Source of the DNA: Escherichia phage Ec_MI-02
Sequence record: OP856590.1
Length of the DNA: 64,000 nt
Direction: 5' to 3' (one strand)
A program made the translations under genes and the position numbers. Numbering within the stretch: position 1 is the stretch's first letter; each line of letters starts with the position of its first letter. This document shows positions 1,728 through 59,383 of this stretch, piece by piece. The notes beneath the pieces were generated by a model. It was not told where the DNA came from and made no database searches. It was given only the letters and a program-made list of their open reading frames with translations.

Positions 1728-2122
1728 CGTGATTCCTTAACAAATTTCATAATTTCATCAAATTCATACGCAGCAAGTTTAAGCTGATGTTCTTTTTTAA
1801 TCTTTTTGCACCGGGCTTTCCAATCACGTACACGTTTACGATAGTGTCTTCCTTGATACCAGTATCCTACCCAATTCACAGGTACTAATAAAAGCGGAAC
1901 TACCAATGGAAGAATTAGTGTTGCTCCAAATATTACACCAGATTCAATATCAGTCATAACGTCTATAACCATTCCAGCAATTAGCAAAATCACAAATGAT
2001 ACAGCTACCACAGGACCTATTAATACATCAGTAGGAATTAGCTGACGCTTTGGTTCATACTTCACAGGTTTACTTGGAAGGTATAGTGATGGCTTTGACA
2101 TATTCTCTACATTCCTTAACAA
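1709..2122 (-). CDS. hypothetical membrane protein (start may be the internal ATG at 2101)
   Basis: 137-aa ORF with two hydrophobic helices; overlaps the 3' end of the upstream gene by 32-53 nt. Confidence 0.55.
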   Translation of the reverse strand: MLRNVENMSKPSLYLPSKPVKYEPKRQLIPTDVLIGPVVAVSFVILLIAGMVIDVMTDIESGVIFGATLILPLVVPLLLVPVNWVGYWYQGRHYRKRVRDWKARCKKIKKEHQLKLAAYEFDEIMKFVKESRCKSQN

Positions 2123-2684
2123 ATTTTTCTAATAATAAATCGCTTTCAAAATTGGGATTTTCTACGAATTTATCAAAAAGATCATCAACAATAGTTAAGA
2201 TATTCTTTTTACTAAGAATACGCTTATTTTCATATTTTGTTTCAGAATCAACTATAAGAGTAAAGAAATATTTCTTTCCCTGAAATTTTACCGTAGTATC
2301 AATATAGAACAAATTTGACTTTTGTAAATTACGTTTAAACCATGCATCACTTAAACTATAAACGCCAAGATAATCATAATCGTCGTTTAAATAACAAACC
2401 GTCCATTCAGGAGAAATGAAATCAGTAAATTCAACATCAAAATCACACGTCAATGAATGAATTGATTCAATACTGTTAATGAGTATTCCAGGACGTATTA
2501 AAGACTTTTTACCTCTAGAAAATCTTCCGGAAAGGCTTTCATCAGTTTCGTATGAAGACCCCCAATAGTAATTACGTCCTTCTGCCATGCGTTTAAGAGC
2601 ATTTAGTAATTGGTCTGGAACATCAACCTGTCTTTGGAACTCTTCAAACATTGAATTGAAATCACTTTGCATTTTCATTTTCAT
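2070..2684 (-). CDS. hypothetical protein
   Basis: 204-aa ORF, no recognisable motif. Confidence 0.6.
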   Translation of the reverse strand: MKMKMQSDFNSMFEEFQRQVDVPDQLLNALKRMAEGRNYYWGSSYETDESLSGRFSRGKKSLIRPGILINSIESIHSLTCDFDVEFTDFISPEWTVCYLNDDYDYLGVYSLSDAWFKRNLQKSNLFYIDTTVKFQGKKYFFTLIVDSETKYENKRILSKKNILTIVDDLFDKFVENPNFESDLLLEKFVKECREYVKAITIPSK

Positions 2685-2703
2685 TCCTATTTACTCCAAG
2701 TAT

Positions 2704-2721
2704 AAGGGGCCGAAGCCCCTT
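2704..2721 (-). terminator. GC-rich UUCG-tetraloop hairpin (ggggc-uucg-gcccc on minus RNA)
   Basis: Inverted repeat taaggggc cgaa gcccctta directly 3' of the 197-aa gene; same 14-mer recurs at 42907 and 63288. Confidence 0.5.
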
Positions 2722-2725
2722 ATCA

Positions 2726-3319
2726 TTATTTCAGAGAATTAATGTATTCCTGAACATCGGCAGAGGTAGTTTCAACCCCAGAAATATTACCGTTAAAGGT
2801 TTCAACTCGAGCAAGGGTATCTTCAATATCAACCTTAGTCAGTGCTGCAATTTCAACTACATCATCGGCAGTACTAATTCCAAGGGCATTTGCTGCACGA
2901 GTTTCACGGATATATTCCAATTTAACTGCAAGTTCTTGGCGAGCATCATCTAACTCAACTACTTTCTTGGCGATTTCAATTCGCATTTCAGCATAACCGT
3001 CAGCCTTAGTAGTCAACTGCTCAGCTGTTCGACGATATAGTAAACCGAGTTTAGCATGCATTGTTACATCTTGACCTTCGGAAAGAAGTTTACGAATTTC
3101 ACGCTCTTTTGATTCGGCCTGTCGATTCTTTTCGACAATAAGTTCACGAATACGTTTTTCTTCATTAATAGATTTAACAGAAGCAGTTTTTAGATCTTTA
3201 ATTTTATCAAGCAGTTTTGCTGCTGCAGCAGTATACTGTTCTTCAACAGATAGATTTTTAGCCATAGCAGAACCAAGTTTAGTGCGAATAAACTCAACAA
3301 TTTTCTTCAGTGTGTTCAT
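2726..3319 (-). CDS. hypothetical coiled-coil protein
   Basis: 197-aa ORF rich in K/E/R/L heptad-like stretches; no enzymatic motif. Confidence 0.6.
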
Positions 3320-3361
3320 AGTATTTCCTTAGGTTGATTAAAAATAAAATCTGTGGAAAAA

Positions 3362-3907
3362 TTATATCATACTATTTAAGAGATGTAAACTATTTTTAAT
3401 TTTACAAATTCGTTCAGCTTCTTCAACGGCGGCGGCGATAATGCTTTTAGCTATAGGAGTACTAATACTAGTAGCTTTTACACTTAACACGATTTCTTTA
3501 TCTTTACTAGGCCAACCCCATGATTTTTCACCATGAGTGCCTTTAATTACAGCAGACACCTCAAGTGAGCATCCACTGTCACATGTTTTTACATTAACAA
3601 CCCAAGGGTCACTTTTCTCAACCGATTTCTCAGCCGGTTTATCCCAGTAAATATTAAGAATACGTGGGACATCAAATTTAGCAGGGCAAATCTTAACTGT
3701 AAGACCTTCGCTTTCTAGCCAATTAATAAGAGGGCGTTCATACATGCGGCGATGTGGGCTTTGGACTCGACAAGCCTTGTGCCCATTGCTTGCGGCTTCA
3801 CTAAGCTGTTCTAATACCTGTTTTTGCATTATTGATAAGATATCATCAAAAGATTTTTCGGAAGTTTCATTCAGTTCGGTATAAAGAGACATAACGGTTT
3901 TCCTCAA
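3362..3907 (-). CDS. hypothetical protein
   Basis: 181-aa ORF, no recognised motif. Confidence 0.6.
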   Translation of the reverse strand: MRKTVMSLYTELNETSEKSFDDILSIMQKQVLEQLSEAASNGHKACRVQSPHRRMYERPLINWLESEGLTVKICPAKFDVPRILNIYWDKPAEKSVEKSDPWVVNVKTCDSGCSLEVSAVIKGTHGEKSWGWPSKDKEIVLSVKATSISTPIAKSIIAAAVEEAERICKIKNSLHLLNSMI

Positions 3908-4286: not shown

Positions 4287-4419
4287 AGTTTTGTGAAAAA
4301 ATTTTTAAAAAGTTTTAGGGAATTCTAGGGAAGGGAGGGGCAATTAAAAGGTAGGATAATATATTATAAAGGGTATAAACTAAATGATGCCTAGAGAGGC
4401 CAAGAAAGGCCTAGATACC

Positions 4420-4444
4420 AAAAACCCCAACCTTTTGGTCGGGG
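4420..4444 (-). terminator. rho-independent terminator
   Basis: Minus RNA ccccgacc-aaaa-ggttgggg followed by UUUUU; directly 3' of the IP-like gene (stop at 4454). Confidence 0.65.
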
Positions 4445-4453
4445 CTAAGAATG

Positions 4454-4927
4454 TTATTTGATTTGTTTAGCAGACCAAATGCGGTCTTTAATAATTTTTT
4501 GGATGTCTTCAACATACTCAAGAGAGTGAACATGCGGATTATCTTTGAAACTATAAGCACGGGCTAGCTTTTGGCCTTCGGTTTTGATTACTAAAAGCTC
4601 TTTAAGGATAGCTTCATATTTAGAGATAATTCCTTTAACGATATTTTTTTCTTGTGCAGCTTTAGGATCTGCTTTAGGAGCAGGTTTACCCGAAGCCTTT
4701 GCAAAAGCAGCGCCAGTAGCAACTAAACTTTTCCAGGCCATACTAACTGCATTTCCCGTAAATCCTTCTGCTTTCATGTCGCGAGCAAATTGGAATCGTG
4801 ATTCGTCAGAAGCATCTTTATAGGAATATTTACCCGCTGCAATGGCTGCTTTTGCGACAGCTTGAATTTCGGTGCTAGATGCTTCATTTAACACCGCTTC
4901 ATTTAAAAATTGAGCATATGATTTCAT
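4454..4927 (-). CDS. internal head protein-like (capsid-targeting sequence at N-terminus)
   Basis: 157 aa; N-terminus MKSYAQFLNEAVLNE resembles the T4 IP targeting sequence (MKTYQEF...E) with LNE|A prohead-protease-type cleavage motifs; late promoter upstream, terminator downstream. Confidence 0.7.
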   Translation of the reverse strand: MKSYAQFLNEAVLNEASSTEIQAVAKAAIAAGKYSYKDASDESRFQFARDMKAEGFTGNAVSMAWKSLVATGAAFAKASGKPAPKADPKAAQEKNIVKGIISKYEAILKELLVIKTEGQKLARAYSFKDNPHVHSLEYVEDIQKIIKDRIWSAKQIK

Positions 4928-4967
4928 CTTATTTCCTGTTTTAATTCGTGGATTTAATATACTACTA

Positions 4968-4975
4968 TATTTATA
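4968..4975 (-). promoter_or_regulatory. T4 late promoter TATAAATA
   Basis: Plus tatttata = TATAAATA on minus, about 41 nt upstream of the ATG at 4927. Confidence 0.55.
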
Positions 4976-4977
4976 CT

Positions 4978-5003
4978 AAAAAGCCCCAACCTTTCGGTCG
5001 GGG
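4978..5003 (-). terminator. rho-independent terminator (GAAA tetraloop) ending the tRNA/stable-RNA transcription unit
   Basis: Minus RNA ccccgacc-gaaa-ggttgggg-c-UUUUU; near-duplicate of the terminator at 4420-4444. Confidence 0.65.
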
Positions 5004-5057
5004 CTAAGCCTTGCGGTAACCTTGTCGGGGTTCCACCTGCTAAGGCAAGTGTTTGTA

Positions 5058-5214
5058 CGAAACGCCGGGATTCGAACCCGGTTATTAAGCAGTTGACGCT
5101 ACTCAATATTTTTAAAAGGCCATATCTCGACCATATCCGAACGTTCCGTCAAAAACGCTACTCGGCTTACGGCAAAGATATTTCCTCGAATCGATAATTC
5201 TGCGCGCCGTTTCA
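5058..5214 (-). ncRNA. candidate tRNA-like stable RNA (compare T4 stable RNA species 1/2)
   Basis: tRNA-like T-arm ccggg-ttcgaat-cccgg followed by a 7-nt strand (cgtttcg) that can pair with tgaaacg about 150 nt upstream; too long for a tRNA; lies between tRNA-Arg and the terminator. Confidence 0.25.
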
Positions 5215-5321
5215 GCTGTGATGTAAGGGGACATTAACAGATCGTAAAGATTTGATAATGTCAGTCCTTACTCAGGGAACATCAGTCCGACGACTTACCG
5301 GTAGCGACCCGGTTTCTTGTT

Positions 5322-5397
5322 TGGTCGAGGCAGTAGGGATCGAACCTACGACCTAGGACTTAGAAGGTCCTTGCTCTTCCTTCTGAGCTATGCCTCG
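5322..5397 (-). tRNA. tRNA-Arg (anticodon TCT)
   Basis: Cloverleaf read by eye on minus strand: acceptor cgaggca/tgcctcg, anticodon loop CTTCTAA, T-arm gtagg-ttcgatc-cctac, encoded CCA. Confidence 0.88.
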
Positions 5398-5401
5398 TAT
5401 T

Positions 5402-5476
5402 TGGCGGACGTGATAGGATTCGAACCTATAACCAATCGCTTAACAGGCGATCGCTCTGCCATTGAGCTACACATCC
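5402..5476 (-). tRNA. tRNA-Asn (anticodon GTT)
   Basis: Acceptor ggatgtg/cacgtcc, anticodon stem-loop atcgc-CTGTTAA-gcgat, T-loop ttcgaat, encoded CCA. Confidence 0.85.
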
Positions 5477-5480
5477 AAAT

Positions 5481-5567
5481 TGGTGGGGAGTGATGGAGTC
5501 GAACCACCCGAGTCGCAATGACAATGGATTTACAGTCCACACCGCTACCTCTACGGGATAACTCCCC
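5481..5567 (-). tRNA. tRNA-Tyr (anticodon GTA), long variable arm
   Basis: Acceptor ggggagt/actcccc, anticodon loop CTGTAAA, long variable arm, T-loop ttcgact, encoded CCA. Confidence 0.82.
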
Positions 5568-5579
5568 TAATTCTTAATT

Positions 5580-5655
5580 TGGTGGCCCTGGGTGGAATTG
5601 AACCACCATCTGGCGATTATGAGTCGCTTGCTTGAACCTTCCAGCTACAGGGCCA
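5580..5655 (-). tRNA. tRNA with CAT anticodon, most likely tRNA-Ile2 (lysidine type), alternatively Met
   Basis: Acceptor ggccctg/cagggcc, anticodon stem-loop agcga-CTCATAA-tcgcc resembling E. coli tRNA-Ile2 (ggcgaCTCATAAtcgct); encoded CCA. Confidence 0.8.
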
Positions 5656-5662
5656 AATTTTC

Positions 5663-6148
5663 TTATTTTATGTAATATTTATTTAAAAACTTTCTAGCTT
5701 GAGTATGGCTAACATTTATAGCGTTTGCATAATTTTTAATAAAACCTCGTTCATCCATATTAAAATTTTCTAATATTTTTAATCGTCTAGTTATCTCATC
5801 TTGACTTAAGGTACTTGCATTATTTTTAGAAATTTTTTCTAAGGACTGTGCCGAGTGTTTTCGACCATTAAAATTAAAATTTTTAGATTTTGGAGGAAAT
5901 CTAGCATTTAATCTCGCATCTTTTGTATTTTGATTATTAGTTGCGCAATATATGTTATTTAATGAATATGGTCCTTTATCGCCGAAACGGCACATGCAGT
6001 ATTCATGACCCTTTCTTCCGCGCTTATCATAATTTCCCGTTGATTTCCACCAATGCAGCCATTCATCAAAAGTTAAATTCCATTCAATGTTTCTACGTAT
6101 AGCAGAATTCCGCTGAGAAATATATTTTGCATAATCTTCTTTCATCAC
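5663..6148 (-). CDS. putative HNH-like (Cys/His-containing) homing-endonuclease-like protein with C-terminal HTH-like tail
   Basis: 161-aa ORF inserted between tRNA-Ser and tRNA-Ile; basic; core GHEYCMCRFGDKGPYSLNNIYCATNNQNTK resembles a degenerate HNH/zinc motif; positional analogy to T4 segB in the tRNA cluster, but no GIY-YIG motif. Confidence 0.5.
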   Translation of the reverse strand: MMKEDYAKYISQRNSAIRRNIEWNLTFDEWLHWWKSTGNYDKRGRKGHEYCMCRFGDKGPYSLNNIYCATNNQNTKDARLNARFPPKSKNFNFNGRKHSAQSLEKISKNNASTLSQDEITRRLKILENFNMDERGFIKNYANAINVSHTQARKFLNKYYIK

Positions 6149-6192
6149 AAATTTCTCTACTTATTCAATACACTGAGCTAAATCAGCAAAAC

Positions 6193-6282
6193 TGGCGGAG
6201 GCGATAGGATTTGAACCTATGAGTCGCCGGAGCGACTGCCGGTTTTCAAGACCGGTGCATTAAACCACTCTGCCACGCCTCC
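6193..6282 (-). tRNA. tRNA-Ser (anticodon TGA), long variable arm
   Basis: Acceptor ggaggcg/cgcctcc, anticodon stem-loop ccggt-CTTGAAA-accgg, variable arm, T-loop ttcaaat, encoded CCA. Confidence 0.9.
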
Positions 6283-6284
6283 AG

Positions 6285-6358
6285 TCTCCGCGGCAGGATT
6301 TGAACCTGCGACATTCTGCTCCCAAAGCAGACGCTCTACCAAACTGAGCTACACGGAG
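6285..6358 (-). tRNA. tRNA-Pro (anticodon TGG)
   Basis: Acceptor ctccgtg/cgcggag, anticodon stem-loop tctgc-TTTGGGA-gcaga, T-arm gcagg-ttcaaat-cctgc. Confidence 0.9.
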
Positions 6359-6368
6359 TAAATTAAAT

Positions 6369-6442
<74 letters not shown>

Positions 6443-6447
6443 AAATT

Positions 6448-6534
6448 TGGTGCGAGAAGTGGGACTCGAACCCACAAGGAAATCATTCCGCAGCATTTTA
6501 AGTGCTGTGCCTTTACCAATTTGACCATTCTCGC
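6448..6534 (-). tRNA. tRNA-Leu (anticodon TAA), long variable arm
   Basis: Acceptor gcgagaa/ttctcgc, anticodon stem-loop cagca-CTTAAAA-tgctg, encoded CCA. Confidence 0.9.
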
Positions 6535-6535
6535 G

Positions 6536-6608
6536 CTGGGAATAAAGGACTCGAACCTTTGCATCCTGGAATCAAAATCCAGTGCCTTACCAACTTGGCT
6601 AATTCCCA
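6536..6608 (-). tRNA. tRNA-Gln (anticodon TTG)
   Basis: Acceptor tgggaat/attccca, anticodon stem-loop ctgga-TTTTGAT-tccag, T-arm aaagg-ttcgagt-ccttt. Confidence 0.9.
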
Positions 6609-6705
6609 ATTATTAACAAAGGCTCTTAAGCAAGAACCCTTGATGATAGAGGGTATTAATCAGTGCGATATGAGTTAATAATAACAAATAATTCTTAAAG
6701 CATAT

Positions 6706-6993
6706 TTACCATTTATGATAATACATATTTACGATGCATTCAAGACCCAAAGGATTCTTGAAAATATCATATTCAAGAGGACCTTTTTCTGTTTCGATAA
6801 AGAAATCAAAATTTACTGTATTAAATTTACGGTCTTCCTTCACTAATTTAACTTGTGAAGATGAACGGTCAATGTAAACCTTTTCAACTTCAAAATATGT
6901 TAAAATACCATAATCATCAATCAAAGCTTTAGCCGCGTCTTGATCGTATTTATATCCATTTTCAATGGATGATACTTTAGCATAAAGAATCAT
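6706..6993 (-). CDS. hypothetical protein
   Basis: 95-aa ORF adjacent to the stop of the upstream gene. Confidence 0.55.
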   Translation of the reverse strand: MILYAKVSSIENGYKYDQDAAKALIDDYGILTYFEVEKVYIDRSSSQVKLVKEDRKFNTVNFDFFIETEKGPLEYDIFKNPLGLECIVNMYYHKW

Positions 6994-6995
6994 TA

Positions 6996-7376
6996 TCAGC
7001 CTTCATCAACAATAGTGTGAGTATTGGCATTTACAATTTGCCACCAATCAAAGCGATTAGAACCATAATCTGGTTTGTTTTCATTTTCTTTGATAATGTC
7101 ACGGAGTTCATCTTCAGTGGCGGCTTTCGCGATTAAATCAGCATATCCACCACGAGGATAATAATTATCACCTGCAAAAAGTAAAAAGTTTGGTTTAATG
7201 TTATTGAACTCTTCAAGAGTAATAACTTTTCCTGACGGTTGAACAATCTCTACATATTTATATCCCAATTTTTGAGCAGCATCTACTGCTTTAAGCAAAG
7301 TATCATGAGCCCATCCAATTTGACAACCTGGCTTTTCAGATGGATTAGCCTGATAATCCGCATACACTTTGTACAT
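6996..7376 (-). CDS. hypothetical protein (127 aa from ATG at 7376; track ORF extends to 7415)
   Basis: ATG at 7376 lies 1 nt after the stop of the 61-aa gene (7378); the track's N-terminal extension overlaps that gene. Confidence 0.55.
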   Translation of the reverse strand: MYKVYADYQANPSEKPGCQIGWAHDTLLKAVDAAQKLGYKYVEIVQPSGKVITLEEFNNIKPNFLLFAGDNYYPRGGYADLIAKAATEDELRDIIKENENKPDYGSNRFDWWQIVNANTHTIVDEG

Positions 7377-7377
7377 T

Positions 7378-7563
7378 CTATTCACCTTTAGAAATTTTAT
7401 CCATAACGATAGCAATTAAACCAATTAAAAATGCTACTACAAGTGAAAAAACATTTTCTGCTGTAGTCAATAATCCGCATATAAATCCAACAAACATTGA
7501 AAAACTAAAAGCAGAAGCAGAAATTGCAATAGCAACATTTCGAATTAATTCACAGCGTTTCAT
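7378..7563 (-). CDS. small hypothetical membrane protein
   Basis: 61-aa ORF with hydrophobic segments (FSMFVGFICGLL, LVVAFLIGLIAIV); preceded by an early-promoter-like element. Confidence 0.5.
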   Translation of the reverse strand: MKRCELIRNVAIAISASAFSFSMFVGFICGLLTTAENVFSLVVAFLIGLIAIVMDKISKGE

Positions 7564-7591
7564 TTTATTCTCCTCAGTAGTTGATAGGGTA

Positions 7592-7621
7592 ATAGTATCA
7601 CAACTAAAACCCTATGTAAAC
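7592..7621 (-). promoter_or_regulatory. sigma70/T4-early-like promoter (GTTTAC -35, 18-nt spacer, TACTAT -10, A/T-rich upstream)
   Basis: -35, -10 and upstream A/T tract are identical to the copy at 7922-7951; only the 12-nt spacer core differs. Confidence 0.5.
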
Positions 7622-7633
7622 AACTTTGTGAAA

Positions 7634-7891
7634 TTATTTTAAATCTTCTAATCGTTTCTTCATCTTAGAACCATTTTTAGCAATTTCTCCTGCATCTGAG
7701 CATAATGCTAAAAGTGCTTTAACTTTAGTTTGGTCTCCTTTAAAAGATGAAGGATCGACTGCAGCAGCAAGTTCTTTAATACGAGAGAAAAGACGCTCAG
7801 CTTCAGCTAAAGCCATTCCAAGCTTTACTTCCATACCATGAGAAGATTCAGTAATAGTAGTTTTTGTAGCAAACTCTTTGAAAGTTTTCAT
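7634..7891 (-). CDS. ipI: internal head protein I-like (capsid-targeting sequence)
   Basis: 85 aa; N-terminus MKTFKEFATKTTITE|S resembles the T4 IP capsid-targeting sequence with an I-x-E cleavage motif; located next to 57B as ipI is in T4. Confidence 0.7.
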   Translation of the reverse strand: MKTFKEFATKTTITESSHGMEVKLGMALAEAERLFSRIKELAAAVDPSSFKGDQTKVKALLALCSDAGEIAKNGSKMKKRLEDLK

Positions 7892-54834: not shown

Positions 54835-54838
54835 CAAT

Positions 54839-54866
54839 GGGGACCGAAAGGTCCCCATATTTTTAT
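54839..54866 (+). terminator. bidirectional terminator (GAAA tetraloop) between gene 54 (+) and alt.-3 (-)
   Basis: ggggacc-gaaa-ggtcccc followed by a T-rich tract. Confidence 0.7.
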
Positions 54867-55153
54867 TTACGGAATGAAATAAAAGCAGCAACTGAAGCAA
54901 CTAAGCTGTCTTCAATATAAACTTCAATTTTTACCGGAGCTTCTGACTCAAATTTACCTGTTACTACACCTTGGAAAATGCTTTCAGTCTGCTCTGGCTT
55001 TGAAAAATTTTCAGAAGGAAAAATTCCGAACTTTTTATCTGTTCCAAAAATTTTGATAAATTCATCATAAACTGCTTCATTAAAAGCGTTATCAGCAGGA
55101 ATAACGCCTTCAACTACAAGTTCTTGACCTAAAAAGCGTAAAGAAGATTTCAT
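54863..55153 (-). CDS. hypothetical protein (alt.-3-like)
   Basis: 96-aa ORF downstream of the alt genes. Confidence 0.65.
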   Translation of the reverse strand: MKSSLRFLGQELVVEGVIPADNAFNEAVYDEFIKIFGTDKKFGIFPSENFSKPEQTESIFQGVVTGKFESEAPVKIEVYIEDSLVASVAAFISFRK

Positions 55154-55213: not shown

Positions 55214-57271
55214 CTACATCTTGAACTTTTTAGACATTCCGTTGATGTTAACCAAAGAAGCCAAGATTTGAGAAACTTCGTTTTCCTCTTCTTTTGATTC
55301 TTCTACAAGGAATTGATTAAACCCAGCCATTGGACGAACTTCACCAGTTTCCATTAGATGATCGCCATCATATACCGATTCTTCTAATTGTTCAGAAGGA
55401 GGAACGATTGTGCCTTCGATTAGATACTTATTATAAGCAGTTTCTTTCATCATGTACGTGCTCACTTTATTAATCTTCAGCAAAATTCCACGCGGTAAAA
55501 TAACTTCAGCTTCTGATGGAAATCCTGATAAATGACCTGGAACGATAACTTTGATTCGCTCAGCCCCTTTAATTACCATACCTACGCTAGTTTCAGCATC
55601 TTCATTAGCATATGCAGAATGACTACCCATATGCATTAAATCTTCAGCATCAACAGAACCTTCTCCTTCACCAGAAAATACTGCGCCGGAATCATCTAGA
55701 GCCATATAGTTTTTACCATGCTCACCGAAGATATTTGGTTTAAGCGATGTTGATACGAAGTTCTTGAAATAGAACATTTTATTTTCAATATTATGACGTA
55801 AAGTTTTAAAAGTAACTTCTTGTCCACGATAAAGCGTAGTTCCCGGAGGAAGAACTGATCCTTTGGCAAAGGCAGAATCCATTGTCTCGATGTGTTTAAT
55901 AGCTCGTTCCATGTATTCTTCACGGGTAGAATCTGGTTTACCCAAGAGGAACGAGTTCATTTCAACATATGAATCTGCACAATAATCTTCGATTACATCA
56001 GACTCAGCCTGAGTCAGTCCTTTTGGAGTTACTTCGGTGCTTGCATATTCATATGCCTGAGCAGCAGATTCATTAATCAATTTATAAATGCCATTCATGA
56101 CAAATTGAATAATAGCTACCTTTTCGTCTGGTGTGGCTTTAGAACCTTTAACTAAATCATTGATAATTTTCTTAATAACATCAAAGCTATTAGAAATATT
56201 AATGTCAGCGAGATCGCTCAAAATTTTATCGGTTTTATAATCAAAAAATTCTTTATTCTTTAAATATTCTTGAGAACCTTGATGTGTTATATCGCTCTGC
56301 AGTCTGATAGACGGATCACGTAAACGTGCATGGGCCAATGCAATATGATTTCGGAAGCTTTCTAGTTCATAATCGCTAGATTTAAAACGAGAAGCACTTC
56401 TCATACCACCGATAGCTCCTTTTCCGAAGTTTGAACCAATCTGAATAACACCAGAGTTCATTGGTCCTTCTGCTTTATATACCGGAACTTTAGATTCAAA
56501 CTCTTGATATTTCTTGGCAGCGAAGCTATCACCCTGAAGCGAAGCATCTACAGTAGAATATTGAGCTTGTGCTGCCAATCGACGACTAATTTTAGTTTTC
56601 TGAATAACAGCTTGATCCGTGCGCTTATCATTTTCTAAAGCAATAGAAGCAGCAACAGCAACAGCTTTAGGAACAGCATTACCTGTTTTAACATCTACAT
56701 AAACATCACCAACCTTTGATTCAACTTTTGTGAATAACTCAGTTGAAATAGGAGGTACACCTGGAATGTCTTCTAAATTGGCATTTTTACGGTAAACCAT
56801 AATATATGCATACTTTTTATCATAATCCCAGATTTCCTTTAAAAGAACATATCGACCTGCTCCTTTAGTACGTACTAAACGGTCAGCAATAACTTGCATT
56901 TGACGAGCAGCTCCATTTGTTTTACTTTTTAGTACGCGGAATAGGCATGCGTCAATTTTATACTGTTTCATTGTTTGAAGAGCAGTATCAAAAACCGCAT
57001 TAATGACACCAATTGGATTTCCACCCAAGTTTTTAAGTTTAACTAATGATAGTTTCTCATTAACACCTATCATTACGATATGCATCATTTTATCGCCTGG
57101 CTTAACGTTTTTATTTGTATCACCACCAGAGGTGTATGTACAAAATCTAAATCCAGGAAGCACACTTTCTTCGCCGGCTTGAATAGCAAAAATTTGAGGT
57201 ATTTTATGCTTAGGATTTAAGTTAACAATCGGCGCCGAAGCGCCGTCAAATAATTCTGTAATAAGTTCCAT
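55214..57271 (-). CDS. Alt-like ADP-ribosyltransferase, second full-length paralogue
   Basis: 685 aa; N-terminal ~200 aa collinear with the adjacent Alt; C-terminal ART signature R (TLYRGQ), S-T-S (FVSTSL), E-x-E (EAEVILPRG); central region divergent. Confidence 0.85.
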   Translation of the reverse strand: MELITELFDGASAPIVNLNPKHKIPQIFAIQAGEESVLPGFRFCTYTSGGDTNKNVKPGDKMMHIVMIGVNEKLSLVKLKNLGGNPIGVINAVFDTALQTMKQYKIDACLFRVLKSKTNGAARQMQVIADRLVRTKGAGRYVLLKEIWDYDKKYAYIMVYRKNANLEDIPGVPPISTELFTKVESKVGDVYVDVKTGNAVPKAVAVAASIALENDKRTDQAVIQKTKISRRLAAQAQYSTVDASLQGDSFAAKKYQEFESKVPVYKAEGPMNSGVIQIGSNFGKGAIGGMRSASRFKSSDYELESFRNHIALAHARLRDPSIRLQSDITHQGSQEYLKNKEFFDYKTDKILSDLADINISNSFDVIKKIINDLVKGSKATPDEKVAIIQFVMNGIYKLINESAAQAYEYASTEVTPKGLTQAESDVIEDYCADSYVEMNSFLLGKPDSTREEYMERAIKHIETMDSAFAKGSVLPPGTTLYRGQEVTFKTLRHNIENKMFYFKNFVSTSLKPNIFGEHGKNYMALDDSGAVFSGEGEGSVDAEDLMHMGSHSAYANEDAETSVGMVIKGAERIKVIVPGHLSGFPSEAEVILPRGILLKINKVSTYMMKETAYNKYLIEGTIVPPSEQLEESVYDGDHLMETGEVRPMAGFNQFLVEESKEEENEVSQILASLVNINGMSKKFKM

Positions 57272-57274
57272 GAT

Positions 57275-59332
57275 TTATCCTTGAACGAACTTGTAAGGCA
57301 TGTTTGCAATATCTATGCAAGATGCAATAATTCCAAGAGATGATTCTACTTTTTGTTTAACATTTGATGAAACAAATGATGCAAAATCAACTCTGTCTTC
57401 TATTTCAATATCACCTGTCATTGCAACTACTTCACCGGTTTCCATTAGACGGTCACCGTCATAAATTACTGATTCGGTGAGTTCTTCTGTAGTCATAACT
57501 TCAGCTTGAATAAGCTTGTTGTTAGTTTTAGCTGTTCCATCATTGTAAGATGCGTCGGTTATTTTATTGACTTTGACCATCAATCCACGCGGCAAAATGA
57601 CTTCCATTTCATTTGAAGGCGCTAAACTTCCACCTGGTAAAACAACGTTGACTTTATCAGCCCCAGTAATAACCCATCCAATTCCAACTAAATTATCGCT
57701 AGAATTAACAAGTCCTTCATCGTTTTTATCGATAGAAATGTTTAGACGCTTTTCGTCTGGTAAAACACCCACAGCTGAATCAGTCATCCAAGTACCAAAA
57801 ATGTTTGGATATAATGATGTTGATACAAAATTTCTAAAATAAAAAACTCGATTTTTTACCAATGCTTCATATATTGAAGGTAACATTCGCTGTGAACGAT
57901 ATAAAGTAATACCTTTTGGCAGTCGATCACCATTTTTAAAGGCTGAATCTAAATTATCGATGGCTTGTTCTATTTCTGGTGCTGTTAAAATACTTGTACG
58001 CTCATCTGGATTATATAATCCCAAAAGAGCATTATTCATGTCTACATATCCTGAACCTACGTATTCACGAATTCCGCGTTTTTGTGCCGGTGTGTATTTA
58101 GATGAATCTTTATTTTCGACTATAGAATGCAATGACCATCCAACGGTAAGAGCATATCCACGTAATTCTCTTCGAATAATCTTTGTTTTTATTGCATTCC
58201 AAGAATTTTGCACTAACTCATTCGCAGCATCTTGATTTAAATGCGAATGCTTGTTAATATTTCTTTCTAACCAAGCACCTTTATATTTTTCTAAAGTATC
58301 ATCAACTATAGAAGCAATAGTTTCTAAAGTTTTTATTGAAGTAATAGATTCTTTTCGTAATCTTTCTAAAGCTTTATTTTTTATTTCTGCATTAACATCA
58401 GATTCTTTATCTTCAGGAATTATAGAAGCTTCTCTGAATGCCATTCCAGCTGTAACACTATTAAGAGCATTCTCTAATGCAAATCCTGAAGTAGAAATAA
58501 CAGTTAATTCGTTAGCATCAGAAATTAAAGGCGCGTCAGCGGGTTTATTTAATTCTGCTGCTGAAGCCTCAAATTTTTGAAACATTGGTGTTTCAAATCT
58601 AGAAGATTCTAACGATTGACTTTGTGCAATTGCTCTACGGGAAATTTTAACTTTAACGATTACAGCTTGATCAGAACGTTTATCGTTTTCTTGCGCAATA
58701 GATGCTGCAATTGCCTCATTTTTAGTTACTTGAGCTCCAGTATCTTTATTGATATAAACATCACCGACCTTCGATTCAACTTTAGTAAAGAGCTCGGTAC
58801 TAATTTCCGGAACTCCTGGAATGTCTTCTAATGATACATTTTTGCGATGTATAAGAATATATGCGTACTTTTTATCGTAATCCCAGAGTTCCTTAAGAAG
58901 GACGTATCTGCCACCTGAACGACTGCGGATAAGTCTATCAGCAATAAGTTGAATTTGACGAGCTTGACCAGCAGTTTTAGACTTAAGAATACGGAGCATA
59001 CAGGCATCAATTTTATACTGACGCATCGTCTGCATCGCAACAGTAAAAACTGAATTGATGTAATTAATTGGGCTTGGACCGAGACCTTTTAATTTAGCAA
59101 TTGAACCTTTGGCAGTTAATGTAAAAGGAACAATATGCATCATTTTATCGCCCATCTTTAAATCGCGATTAGTATCACCTCCAGATGTATAAGTACATAA
59201 ACGAAAGCCTGGTTGTTCAATTGCGTCATCAACATGAACTGAAAAAATTTGCGGTATTTTCTTCTTTGGATTTAAGTTTGTAATCGGAAGAGTAGTATCT
59301 TCGTCAAATAATTCTGTAATAAGTTCCATCAT
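57275..59332 (-). CDS. alt: Alt ADP-ribosyltransferase (packaged, RNA polymerase-modifying); likely T4 alt ortholog
   Basis: 685 aa (tandem Met start; T4 Alt about 682); ART signature LYRSQ / FVSTSL / EMEVILPRG; N-terminus MELITELFDEDTTLPITNL... matches T4 Alt as recalled. Confidence 0.9.
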   Translation of the reverse strand: MMELITELFDEDTTLPITNLNPKKKIPQIFSVHVDDAIEQPGFRLCTYTSGGDTNRDLKMGDKMMHIVPFTLTAKGSIAKLKGLGPSPINYINSVFTVAMQTMRQYKIDACMLRILKSKTAGQARQIQLIADRLIRSRSGGRYVLLKELWDYDKKYAYILIHRKNVSLEDIPGVPEISTELFTKVESKVGDVYINKDTGAQVTKNEAIAASIAQENDKRSDQAVIVKVKISRRAIAQSQSLESSRFETPMFQKFEASAAELNKPADAPLISDANELTVISTSGFALENALNSVTAGMAFREASIIPEDKESDVNAEIKNKALERLRKESITSIKTLETIASIVDDTLEKYKGAWLERNINKHSHLNQDAANELVQNSWNAIKTKIIRRELRGYALTVGWSLHSIVENKDSSKYTPAQKRGIREYVGSGYVDMNNALLGLYNPDERTSILTAPEIEQAIDNLDSAFKNGDRLPKGITLYRSQRMLPSIYEALVKNRVFYFRNFVSTSLYPNIFGTWMTDSAVGVLPDEKRLNISIDKNDEGLVNSSDNLVGIGWVITGADKVNVVLPGGSLAPSNEMEVILPRGLMVKVNKITDASYNDGTAKTNNKLIQAEVMTTEELTESVIYDGDRLMETGEVVAMTGDIEIEDRVDFASFVSSNVKQKVESSLGIIASCIDIANMPYKFVQG

Positions 59333-59352
59333 ATCCTCTCTAGTGTTTATTC

Positions 59353-59360
59353 TATTTATA
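59353..59360 (-). promoter_or_regulatory. T4 late promoter TATAAATA for alt
   Basis: Exact TATAAATA on minus strand 21 nt upstream of the alt ATG. Confidence 0.55.
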
Positions 59361-59365
59361 AAATT

Positions 59366-59383
59366 AAAGGCCCGAAGGCCTTT
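59366..59383 (-). terminator. UUCG-tetraloop hairpin
   Basis: Minus RNA aaaggcc-uucg-ggccuuu overlapping the stop of the 62-aa ORF. Confidence 0.5.

Follow-up and report, generated by a model that had tools for sequence, protein, structure and literature searches.

The alt region of Escherichia phage Ec_MI-02: alt and an intact tandem paralogue, alt2, that persists in T4 as a remnant

Escherichia phage Ec_MI-02 (sequence record OP856590.1) carries two adjacent genes of the Alt family of ADP-ribosyltransferases (ARTs) within the 64,000-nt stretch of its DNA analysed here, hereafter referred to as the window. Both genes, alt upstream and alt2 downstream, lie on the minus strand (57275-59329/59332 and 55214-57271), are 3 nt apart and stand behind one TATAAATA late-promoter motif (Table 1). 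The neighbouring genes are gp48, gp54, alt.-3 (DUF5498), alt.1 (Phage_blade), DNA ligase and 30.1, a set that is the alt region of a Tequatrovirus, and the pair is located between gene 30/alt.1 and alt.-3/gene 54 with the late promoter in front. Over 4.8 kb the region matches Shigella phage pSs-1 at 99.1% identity, and the RefSeq entry of that phage labels both genes 'Alt-like RNA polymerase ADP-ribosyltransferase'. The locus is an ordinary alt region of a pSs-1-like Tequatrovirus, consisting of alt and an old, intact tandem paralogue. An initial annotation of the window had described two minus-strand reading frames 3 nt apart with a late promoter at 59353-59360 ahead of the pair; the spacer is ATC, and TATAAATA is found at that place on the minus strand.

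The upstream gene is the alt orthologue, as initially proposed, with a product 96% identical to T4 Alt (gpAlt, NP_049811), a packaged NAD+:arginine mono-ADP-ribosyltransferase and an experimentally active enzyme. Among the host proteins that T4 Alt ADP-ribosylates is RNA polymerase alpha, at Arg265. The match of the upstream protein to PF03496 reaches 117.9 bits against a gathering score of 23.4. Its reading frame opens with two adjacent ATG codons (59327-59332, minus strand). Counted from the first ATG (59332), the frame has 685 aa, the length initially given for both products. The second ATG (59329), giving 684 aa (MELITE...), is the likely start; it is the start used by T4 Alt and by the pSs-1 annotation, and has the better spacing to GAGG. 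The figure of 685 aa stands for the downstream product and is probably one residue too high for the upstream one. With respect to numbering, the published E577 of Alt fits the first ATG and the processing site ITE-6 fits the second.

The downstream gene encodes a protein of 685 aa with 42% identity to T4 Alt. The two proteins of the window align end to end (42% identical), and because E=3e-158 their similarity is not due to chance. Alt2 matches PF03496 at 3.2e-20 (72.8 bits against the same gathering score), and the full-length phrog_802 profile matches at 4e-255 (alt2) and 4e-263 (alt). The PF26846 + PF03496 architecture is precomputed for the cluster representative P0001 (99% identical) and also for the two genes of L007, a distant T4-like contig. 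Both genes encode full-length Alt-family proteins of three modules, namely an N-domain (PF26846), a helical centre and an R-S-E ART domain, and profile and motif evidence places both products in the Alt family (phrog_802; PF26846+PF03496) and in the R-S-E ART clade. A search of NCBIfam returned no family for Alt or Alt2. A sequence search of PDB chains returned nothing for Alt2 and only weak CdtA matches for Alt, in which CdtA was aligned at LYR and ExE.

The catalytic signature, an R preceded by an aromatic residue, then S-T-S, then E-x-E, occurs in this order in both proteins (Table 1), with the motifs quoted in the initial annotation located in each copy and the PF03496 threshold passed by both. 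In T4 Alt the substitution E577A abolishes activity, which makes the second Glu of E-x-E essential (PMC11404850). This residue is E576 when counted from the second ATG and is aligned with E589 of Alt2. An AlphaFold model of Alt2 obtained from a 19-sequence alignment (predicted local distance difference test, pLDDT, 75.9) consists of four parts: an alpha/beta N-domain, a helical centre, the ART domain and a disordered tail. In the model, R482 lies in strand 480-487, STS in strand 506-509 and ExE just before strand 590-592. Foldseek matched the Alt2 ART domain to Vis, C3bot, CDTa, VIP2 and iota toxin at probability 1.00, with target template modelling (TM) scores of 0.6-0.7 (maximum 0.70). As modelled, the domain has a C3/VIP2-type ADP-ribosyltransferase fold; the ART fold initially expected of the downstream copy is borne out, with the catalytic residues on the expected strands.

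Divergence between Alt and Alt2 is distributed unevenly. The N-termini (residues 1-238) are 68% identical, in agreement with the collinear N-terminus noted initially; the ART domains are 35-37% identical and the C-termini 38-42%. The centre (residues 239-415) is 25% identical in pairwise alignment and 11% in the family alignment. A strongly divergent centre had been predicted, and it is divergent, over about 180 aa rather than about 250; a second divergent, indel-rich stretch is a loop within the ART domain at about residues 516-556. The helical centre of Alt2 is, from this pattern, a candidate substrate-recognition module. Among six Tequatroviruses, alt2 is always 2058 nt in length, with no stop codons and with the 3-nt spacer. 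The pairwise ratio of nonsynonymous to synonymous substitution rates (dN/dS) of alt2 is 0.027-0.060 at dS up to 0.33; by region it is 0.017 for the N-terminus, 0.089 for the centre, 0.036 for the ART domain and 0.029 for the C-terminus. The gene is under strong purifying selection, and with the full signature and 42% identity to Alt it is the distinct, intact paralogue that the initial annotation had taken it to be.

Table 1. Features of the alt region. Positions refer to the window unless another record is named; (-) denotes the minus strand.
Feature	Positions	Strand	Remarks
alt2 ('alt.-2' in RB32 and T6 records), 685 aa, intact Alt paralogue	55214..57271	(-)	
alt2 N-terminal alpha/beta domain, residues 1-238	56558..57271	(-)	PF26846 Tevenvirinae_ADPRT
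alt2 gp21 site ITE-6	57254-57262	(-)	
CTAAAAAGT, 5' copy of 9-nt direct repeat	56924..56932	(-)	T4 deletion breakpoint
Conserved box IWDYDKKYAYI in alt2	56801..56833	(-)	alt partner box 58856-58888; crossover site of the ECML-134 hybrid
alt2 central all-helical region, residues 239-415	56027..56557	(-)	most divergent module
alt2 ART catalytic domain, up to predicted gp21 site	55379..56026	(-)	
alt2 R482	55826-55828	(-)	in TLYRGQ
alt2 STS 507-509	55745-55753	(-)	in FVSTSL
alt2 EAE 587-589	55505-55513	(-)	in EAEVILPRG
alt2 LEE 629-631, predicted gp21 site	55379-55387	(-)	
alt2 predicted C-terminal propeptide, residues 632-685	55217..55378	(-)	begins with family-invariant S-V-Y-D-G-D-x-L-M-E-T-G-E; disordered in model
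CTAAAAAGT, 3' copy of 9-nt direct repeat	55225..55233	(-)	other T4 deletion breakpoint
Spacer ATC, 3 nt, alt stop to alt2 start	57272..57274	(-)	
alt orthologue, 684 aa	57275..59329	(-)	96% identical to T4 Alt; PF03496 4.7e-34; phrog_802 end to end
alt gp21 site ITE-6	59312-59320	(-)	
alt R478	57896-57898	(-)	in TLYRSQ
alt STS 503-505	57815-57823	(-)	in FVSTSL
alt EME 574-576	57602-57610	(-)	in EMEVILPRG
alt gp21 site LTE-619	57473-57481	(-)	
alt C-terminal propeptide	57278-57472	(-)	
Late promoter motif TATAAATA, T4-type	59353..59360	(-)	21 nt 5' of alt start
Hairpin AAAGGCC-TTCG-GGCCTTT	59366..59383	(-)	overlaps alt.1 stop codon, just upstream of late promoter
Second alt allele	L004 (RB32) 733-2826; L011 (T6) 4363-6456; L012 (T2) 5798-7891		
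alt::alt2 hybrid	L010 (ECML-134) 1742-3802; L009 5001-7055		

The TATAAATA motif is enriched across the window (24 copies against 9.6 expected) and occurs as a single copy within 54-60 kb; therefore, it probably serves both alt and alt2. A Shine-Dalgarno-like AAGGA is located 6 nt 5' of the alt2 ATG, within the 3' end of alt, and this position together with the 3-nt spacer suggests that alt2 is translationally coupled to alt. The spacer is kept in AR1, RB32, SH7, JoYop, T2, T6 and the distant contig L007. The hairpin upstream of the promoter may be a terminator or a stability element for the upstream early transcript; it was not called by a terminator scan.

The distribution of alt2 was determined by searching a phage collection with the unique central part of the gene, and T4-type loci were counted by the deletion junction of T4. 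The central part was found in 401 records, all with full coverage and at least 92% nucleotide identity, including RB32, RB27, RB10, AR1, PST, phiD1, fPS-65 and pSs-1; T2 and T6 both carry an intact 2058-nt alt2. The T4-type junction was found in 91 records, comprising T4 variants, RB55, RB59 and natural isolates such as HY03, SG1 and vB_EcoM_112. Because many of these are natural isolates, the junction is not a laboratory artefact. The alt+alt2 pair with its 3-nt spacer is kept in about 80% of sequenced Tequatroviruses and in one more distant T4-like contig. The suggestion that the arrangement is unusual has to be abandoned, since the two-gene pair is standard in the closest relatives, T2, T6, RB32 and pSs-1 among them. 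Gene content and annotation were already known, and the arrangement is the norm for the genus.

Comparison with T4 identifies what became of the second gene there. T4 Alt.-1 (NP_049810) matches residues 1-56 of Alt2 (93%) and T4 Alt.-2 (NP_049809) matches residues 62-116 (98%), and the PHROG families built from these T4 fragments match Alt2 far better than Alt. Two changes separate T4 from the window. A 1-nt deletion in an A-run separates alt.-1 from alt.-2, and 1,699 bp between the two copies of CTAAAAAGT are gone, with one copy and an out-of-frame tail remaining (junction at about 5100 in L002, the T4 record). The T4 alt.-1 and alt.-2 products are the decayed N-terminal remnant of alt2, and the window holds the intact form. 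On the evidence of the alignment the T4 state is the derived one, a deletion in T4 and not an insertion in its relatives. The text of the T4 record describes alt.-1/alt.-2 as an 'old duplication of the first part of alt', and the RB32 (2006) and T6 records carry the label 'alt.-2; apparent insertion in alt.-2; similar to alt'. Nolan et al. in 2006 have reported alt paralogues in T4, RB49 and 44RR, one of them full-length (PMC1524935).

The duplication is old, and the locus has been reworked by recombination. Contig L007 has the same layout, ligase-Alt-3 nt-Alt2-DUF5498-gp54, and each of its copies is nearest to its own orthologue (Alt 61%, Alt2 74%); the duplication therefore predates the split from L007. 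The 'Alt' of JS10-type phages is Alt2-like in the centre, ART domain and C-terminus, and several database proteins combine the Alt2 centre, ART domain and C-terminus with N-domains that are graded from Alt2-like to Alt-like. Two alleles or more exist of alt proper, one of the T4 type and one of the RB32/T2/T6 type; their N- and C-termini are 97-99% identical, against 33% in the centre and 65% in the ART domain. The second allele (697 aa; P0106, in a cluster of 641 member sequences) is a cassette-like mosaic. A single alt::alt2 hybrid gene is present in the cultured phages ECML-134 and vB_EcoM_SCS4 and in a 65-kb metagenomic contig. The crossover of the hybrid falls within the conserved LWDYDKKYAYI box, a position as would be expected of unequal homologous recombination between tandem copies, and phages with the hybrid are without Alt's own catalytic module. 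That the hybrid is an artefact of metagenome assembly was ruled out by the same layout in the complete genome of the cultured phage ECML-134. The locus exists in three natural states, namely alt+alt2, alt plus remnant and, rarely, the alt::alt2 hybrid, so that natural phages occur that have lost one or the other catalytic module.

Each T4 head contains about 40 copies of Alt, which are ejected together with the DNA (PMC9958956; PMC9026906). Mass spectrometry has located its gp21 cuts at ITE-6 and LTE-619, with removal of 63 C-terminal residues to give a 68.2-kDa protein (PMC5694885). Both sites are in register in Alt2, ITE-6 in the same position and LEE-631 aligned to LTE-619, followed by Ser, and all 19 aligned family members match [LIM]-x-E-[SA] at the C-terminal site. 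Residues 7-619 of the upstream copy have a computed mass of 68.2 kDa, and the predicted mature Alt2 has one of 69.1 kDa; with sizes so close, the two would probably be hard to resolve on sodium dodecyl sulfate (SDS) gels. The Alt2 model is of low confidence at residues 629-634, the predicted cleavage site, and in the tail 639-685. The conserved sites and the low-confidence tail give indirect but specific support to the view that Alt2 would be packaged and processed like Alt. Just past the C-terminal gp21 site, mapped in T4 Alt and predicted in Alt2, both paralogues and the 19 aligned homologues share a Y-D-G-D core followed by a conserved acidic E-T/S-G-E. This segment sits inside the removed propeptide of each protein and could act in targeting, tethering or auto-inhibition. 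Entry of Alt into the head through a classical internal protein (IP)-type capsid targeting sequence (CTS) was considered and dropped, as a review states that the CTS is not conserved in Alt (PMC9958956); a contrary report holds that all internal proteins use one (PMC5694885). In a T4-like phage of Morganella, the single Alt homologue has been detected in virions.

Because alt2 is under purifying selection and keeps both gp21 sites, Alt2 is most likely a second head-packaged, injected, arginine-specific ART. Because divergence is greatest in the centre and in the loops between STS and ExE, and these parts are swapped as cassettes, it most likely recognises different or partly overlapping host proteins. 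The two combine into the reading that we favour with moderate confidence, in which Alt2 is made late, packaged, trimmed by gp21 and injected as an arginine ART whose host targets differ from, or only partly overlap with, those of Alt. The course of events would be as follows. Both genes would be transcribed late from the single TATAAATA promoter, with translation of alt2 coupled to that of alt, and both proteins would enter the prohead core. There gp21 would trim each at ITE-6 and at the L-x-E before Ser (619 in Alt, 631 in Alt2), giving the 68.2- and 69.1-kDa forms, which would enter the next host along with the ejected DNA and carry out NAD+-dependent mono-ADP-ribosylation of arginines (E-x-E type). 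The divergent helical centre, together with the loops between STS and ExE, would determine the choice of substrate; these parts are exchanged as cassettes between alleles that have the same N- and C-termini. What the data show directly are the architecture, catalytic motifs, conserved cleavage motifs, selection and synteny of Alt2; its packaging, its activity and its having distinct targets are inferred.

Several points weigh against this reading. The L/I-x-E tripeptides are common, with 7-8 per protein, so that conservation of the gp21 motif is only suggestive, and the classical CTS is, as noted, reported as not conserved in Alt (PMC9958956). Alt2 is absent from T4 and from about 90 further records, and ECML-134 is without the catalytic module of Alt; as each is missing in some phages, either enzyme is dispensable and their functions may overlap. 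The claim of different targets is plausible and is drawn solely from sequence divergence. Literature searches gave no paper on the function or targets of Alt2, nor on virion proteomics of two-gene phages. More tentatively, and with less confidence than in the reading above, Alt2 may be another injected effector, one that acts mainly on a substrate other than that known for Alt, for example a component of host defence or translation, and that would have gone unstudied through the deletion in T4. The locus would then be a cassette system with constant termini for packaging and processing and with centre+ART 'warheads' shuffled by recombination.

Among the rivals, one fares best, although we regard it as unlikely: Alt2 may be a redundant back-up or dosage copy, packaged and active on essentially the same targets as Alt (RNA polymerase alpha and others). 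The proteins are alike in architecture, in the E-x-E arginine-type motif, in promoter and in processing sites, and either module has been lost in nature, that of Alt2 in T4-type phages and that of Alt in ECML-134. However, copies that are only 11-25% identical in the centre and 35-37% in the ART domain are each held under strong purifying selection, and both persist in about 80% of genomes and on either side of a lineage split. If the copies were redundant, one would expect loss, or homogenisation over their full length and not in the N-domain alone. A less probable alternative is that Alt2, made late, stays unpackaged and acts in the producing cell on host or phage proteins late in infection. 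The virion data concern Alt, in which the classical CTS is reported as not conserved, and both points suit that alternative. Against it, the N-domain of Alt2 is 68% identical to that of Alt and has been exchanged between the copies by recombination, both gp21 sites, relevant only inside the prohead, are conserved, and the part from the predicted cleavage site to the C-terminus is mostly of low confidence in the model, as for a propeptide. That Alt2 has no catalytic activity, has a purely structural role inside the head or is a duplicate in decay, as the broken remnant in T4 might suggest, is very improbable in view of the intact R/STS/ExE, the PF03496 score of 72.8 bits, the modelled ART fold, the dN/dS of 0.036 in the ART region and the six of six genes of exactly 2058 nt with no stop codons.

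Two further features were observed downstream of the pair. The alt.-3 gene (DUF5498, phrog_1739; 54863-55153, minus strand) has a T4-early-like promoter, GTTTACA-N17-TACAAT with a TG extension (55213-55185, minus strand), that overlaps the alt2 stop codon; with this promoter of its own, alt.-3 is probably expressed separately from the late alt pair. Mutants of T4 Alt.-3 with a C-terminal extension evade CmdTAC defence (PMC11618068). A perfect hairpin with a 9-bp stem, ATGGGGACC-GAAA-GGTCCCCAT (54837-54858), lies between gene 54 (plus strand) and alt.-3 (minus strand), which are convergent; it has T-runs on both strands and resembles a terminator that acts in both directions.

Hundreds of genomes carry annotations of the gene pair, and mentions of the duplication date back to 2003-2006. 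What is new here is the direction of the change in T4, the breakpoints of its deletion, the conservation of the gp21 sites in Alt2 and the recombination states of the locus. T2, T6 and most other natural T4-type phages probably inject a pair of distinct ADP-ribosyltransferases. Nearly all of the biochemistry has been done on T4 with its single Alt, so that an effector may be overlooked when studies of host takeover or anti-phage defence generalise from this phage.

Alt2 has several close counterparts among known systems. T4 Alt and Alt2 share the three-module architecture, R/STS/ExE, late expression, synteny and both gp21 motifs; they differ in being 42% identical overall and 11-25% in the helical centre, and Alt2 has indel-rich loops between STS and ExE. 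RB32 and T6 carry the orthologue of the window's alt2 as their 685-aa alt.-2, whereas the T4 alt.-1/alt.-2 reading frames are its derived state, reached by the 1-nt and 1,699-bp deletions. In other genera, 44RRORF187c/188c and RB49ORF183c are full or partial duplicates adjoining alt and described as paralogous (PMC1524935), and resemble alt2 by arrangement. The C-terminal domain of Alt2 is similar in fold and catalytic triad to C3bot, Vis, VIP2, CDTa and iota toxin of the R-S-E clade (PF03496); the C3-like and binary toxins, however, are without the Tevenvirinae N-domain and delivery from a phage head. The C3 enzymes have Q-x-E and are asparagine-specific, whereas both phage proteins have E-x-E. 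The T4 ModA and ModB proteins are single-domain ARTs of about 200 aa that are made early and encoded at the mod locus. In contrast, the proteins of the window are of about 685 aa, carry the extra N-domain and are encoded at the alt locus behind a late promoter motif.

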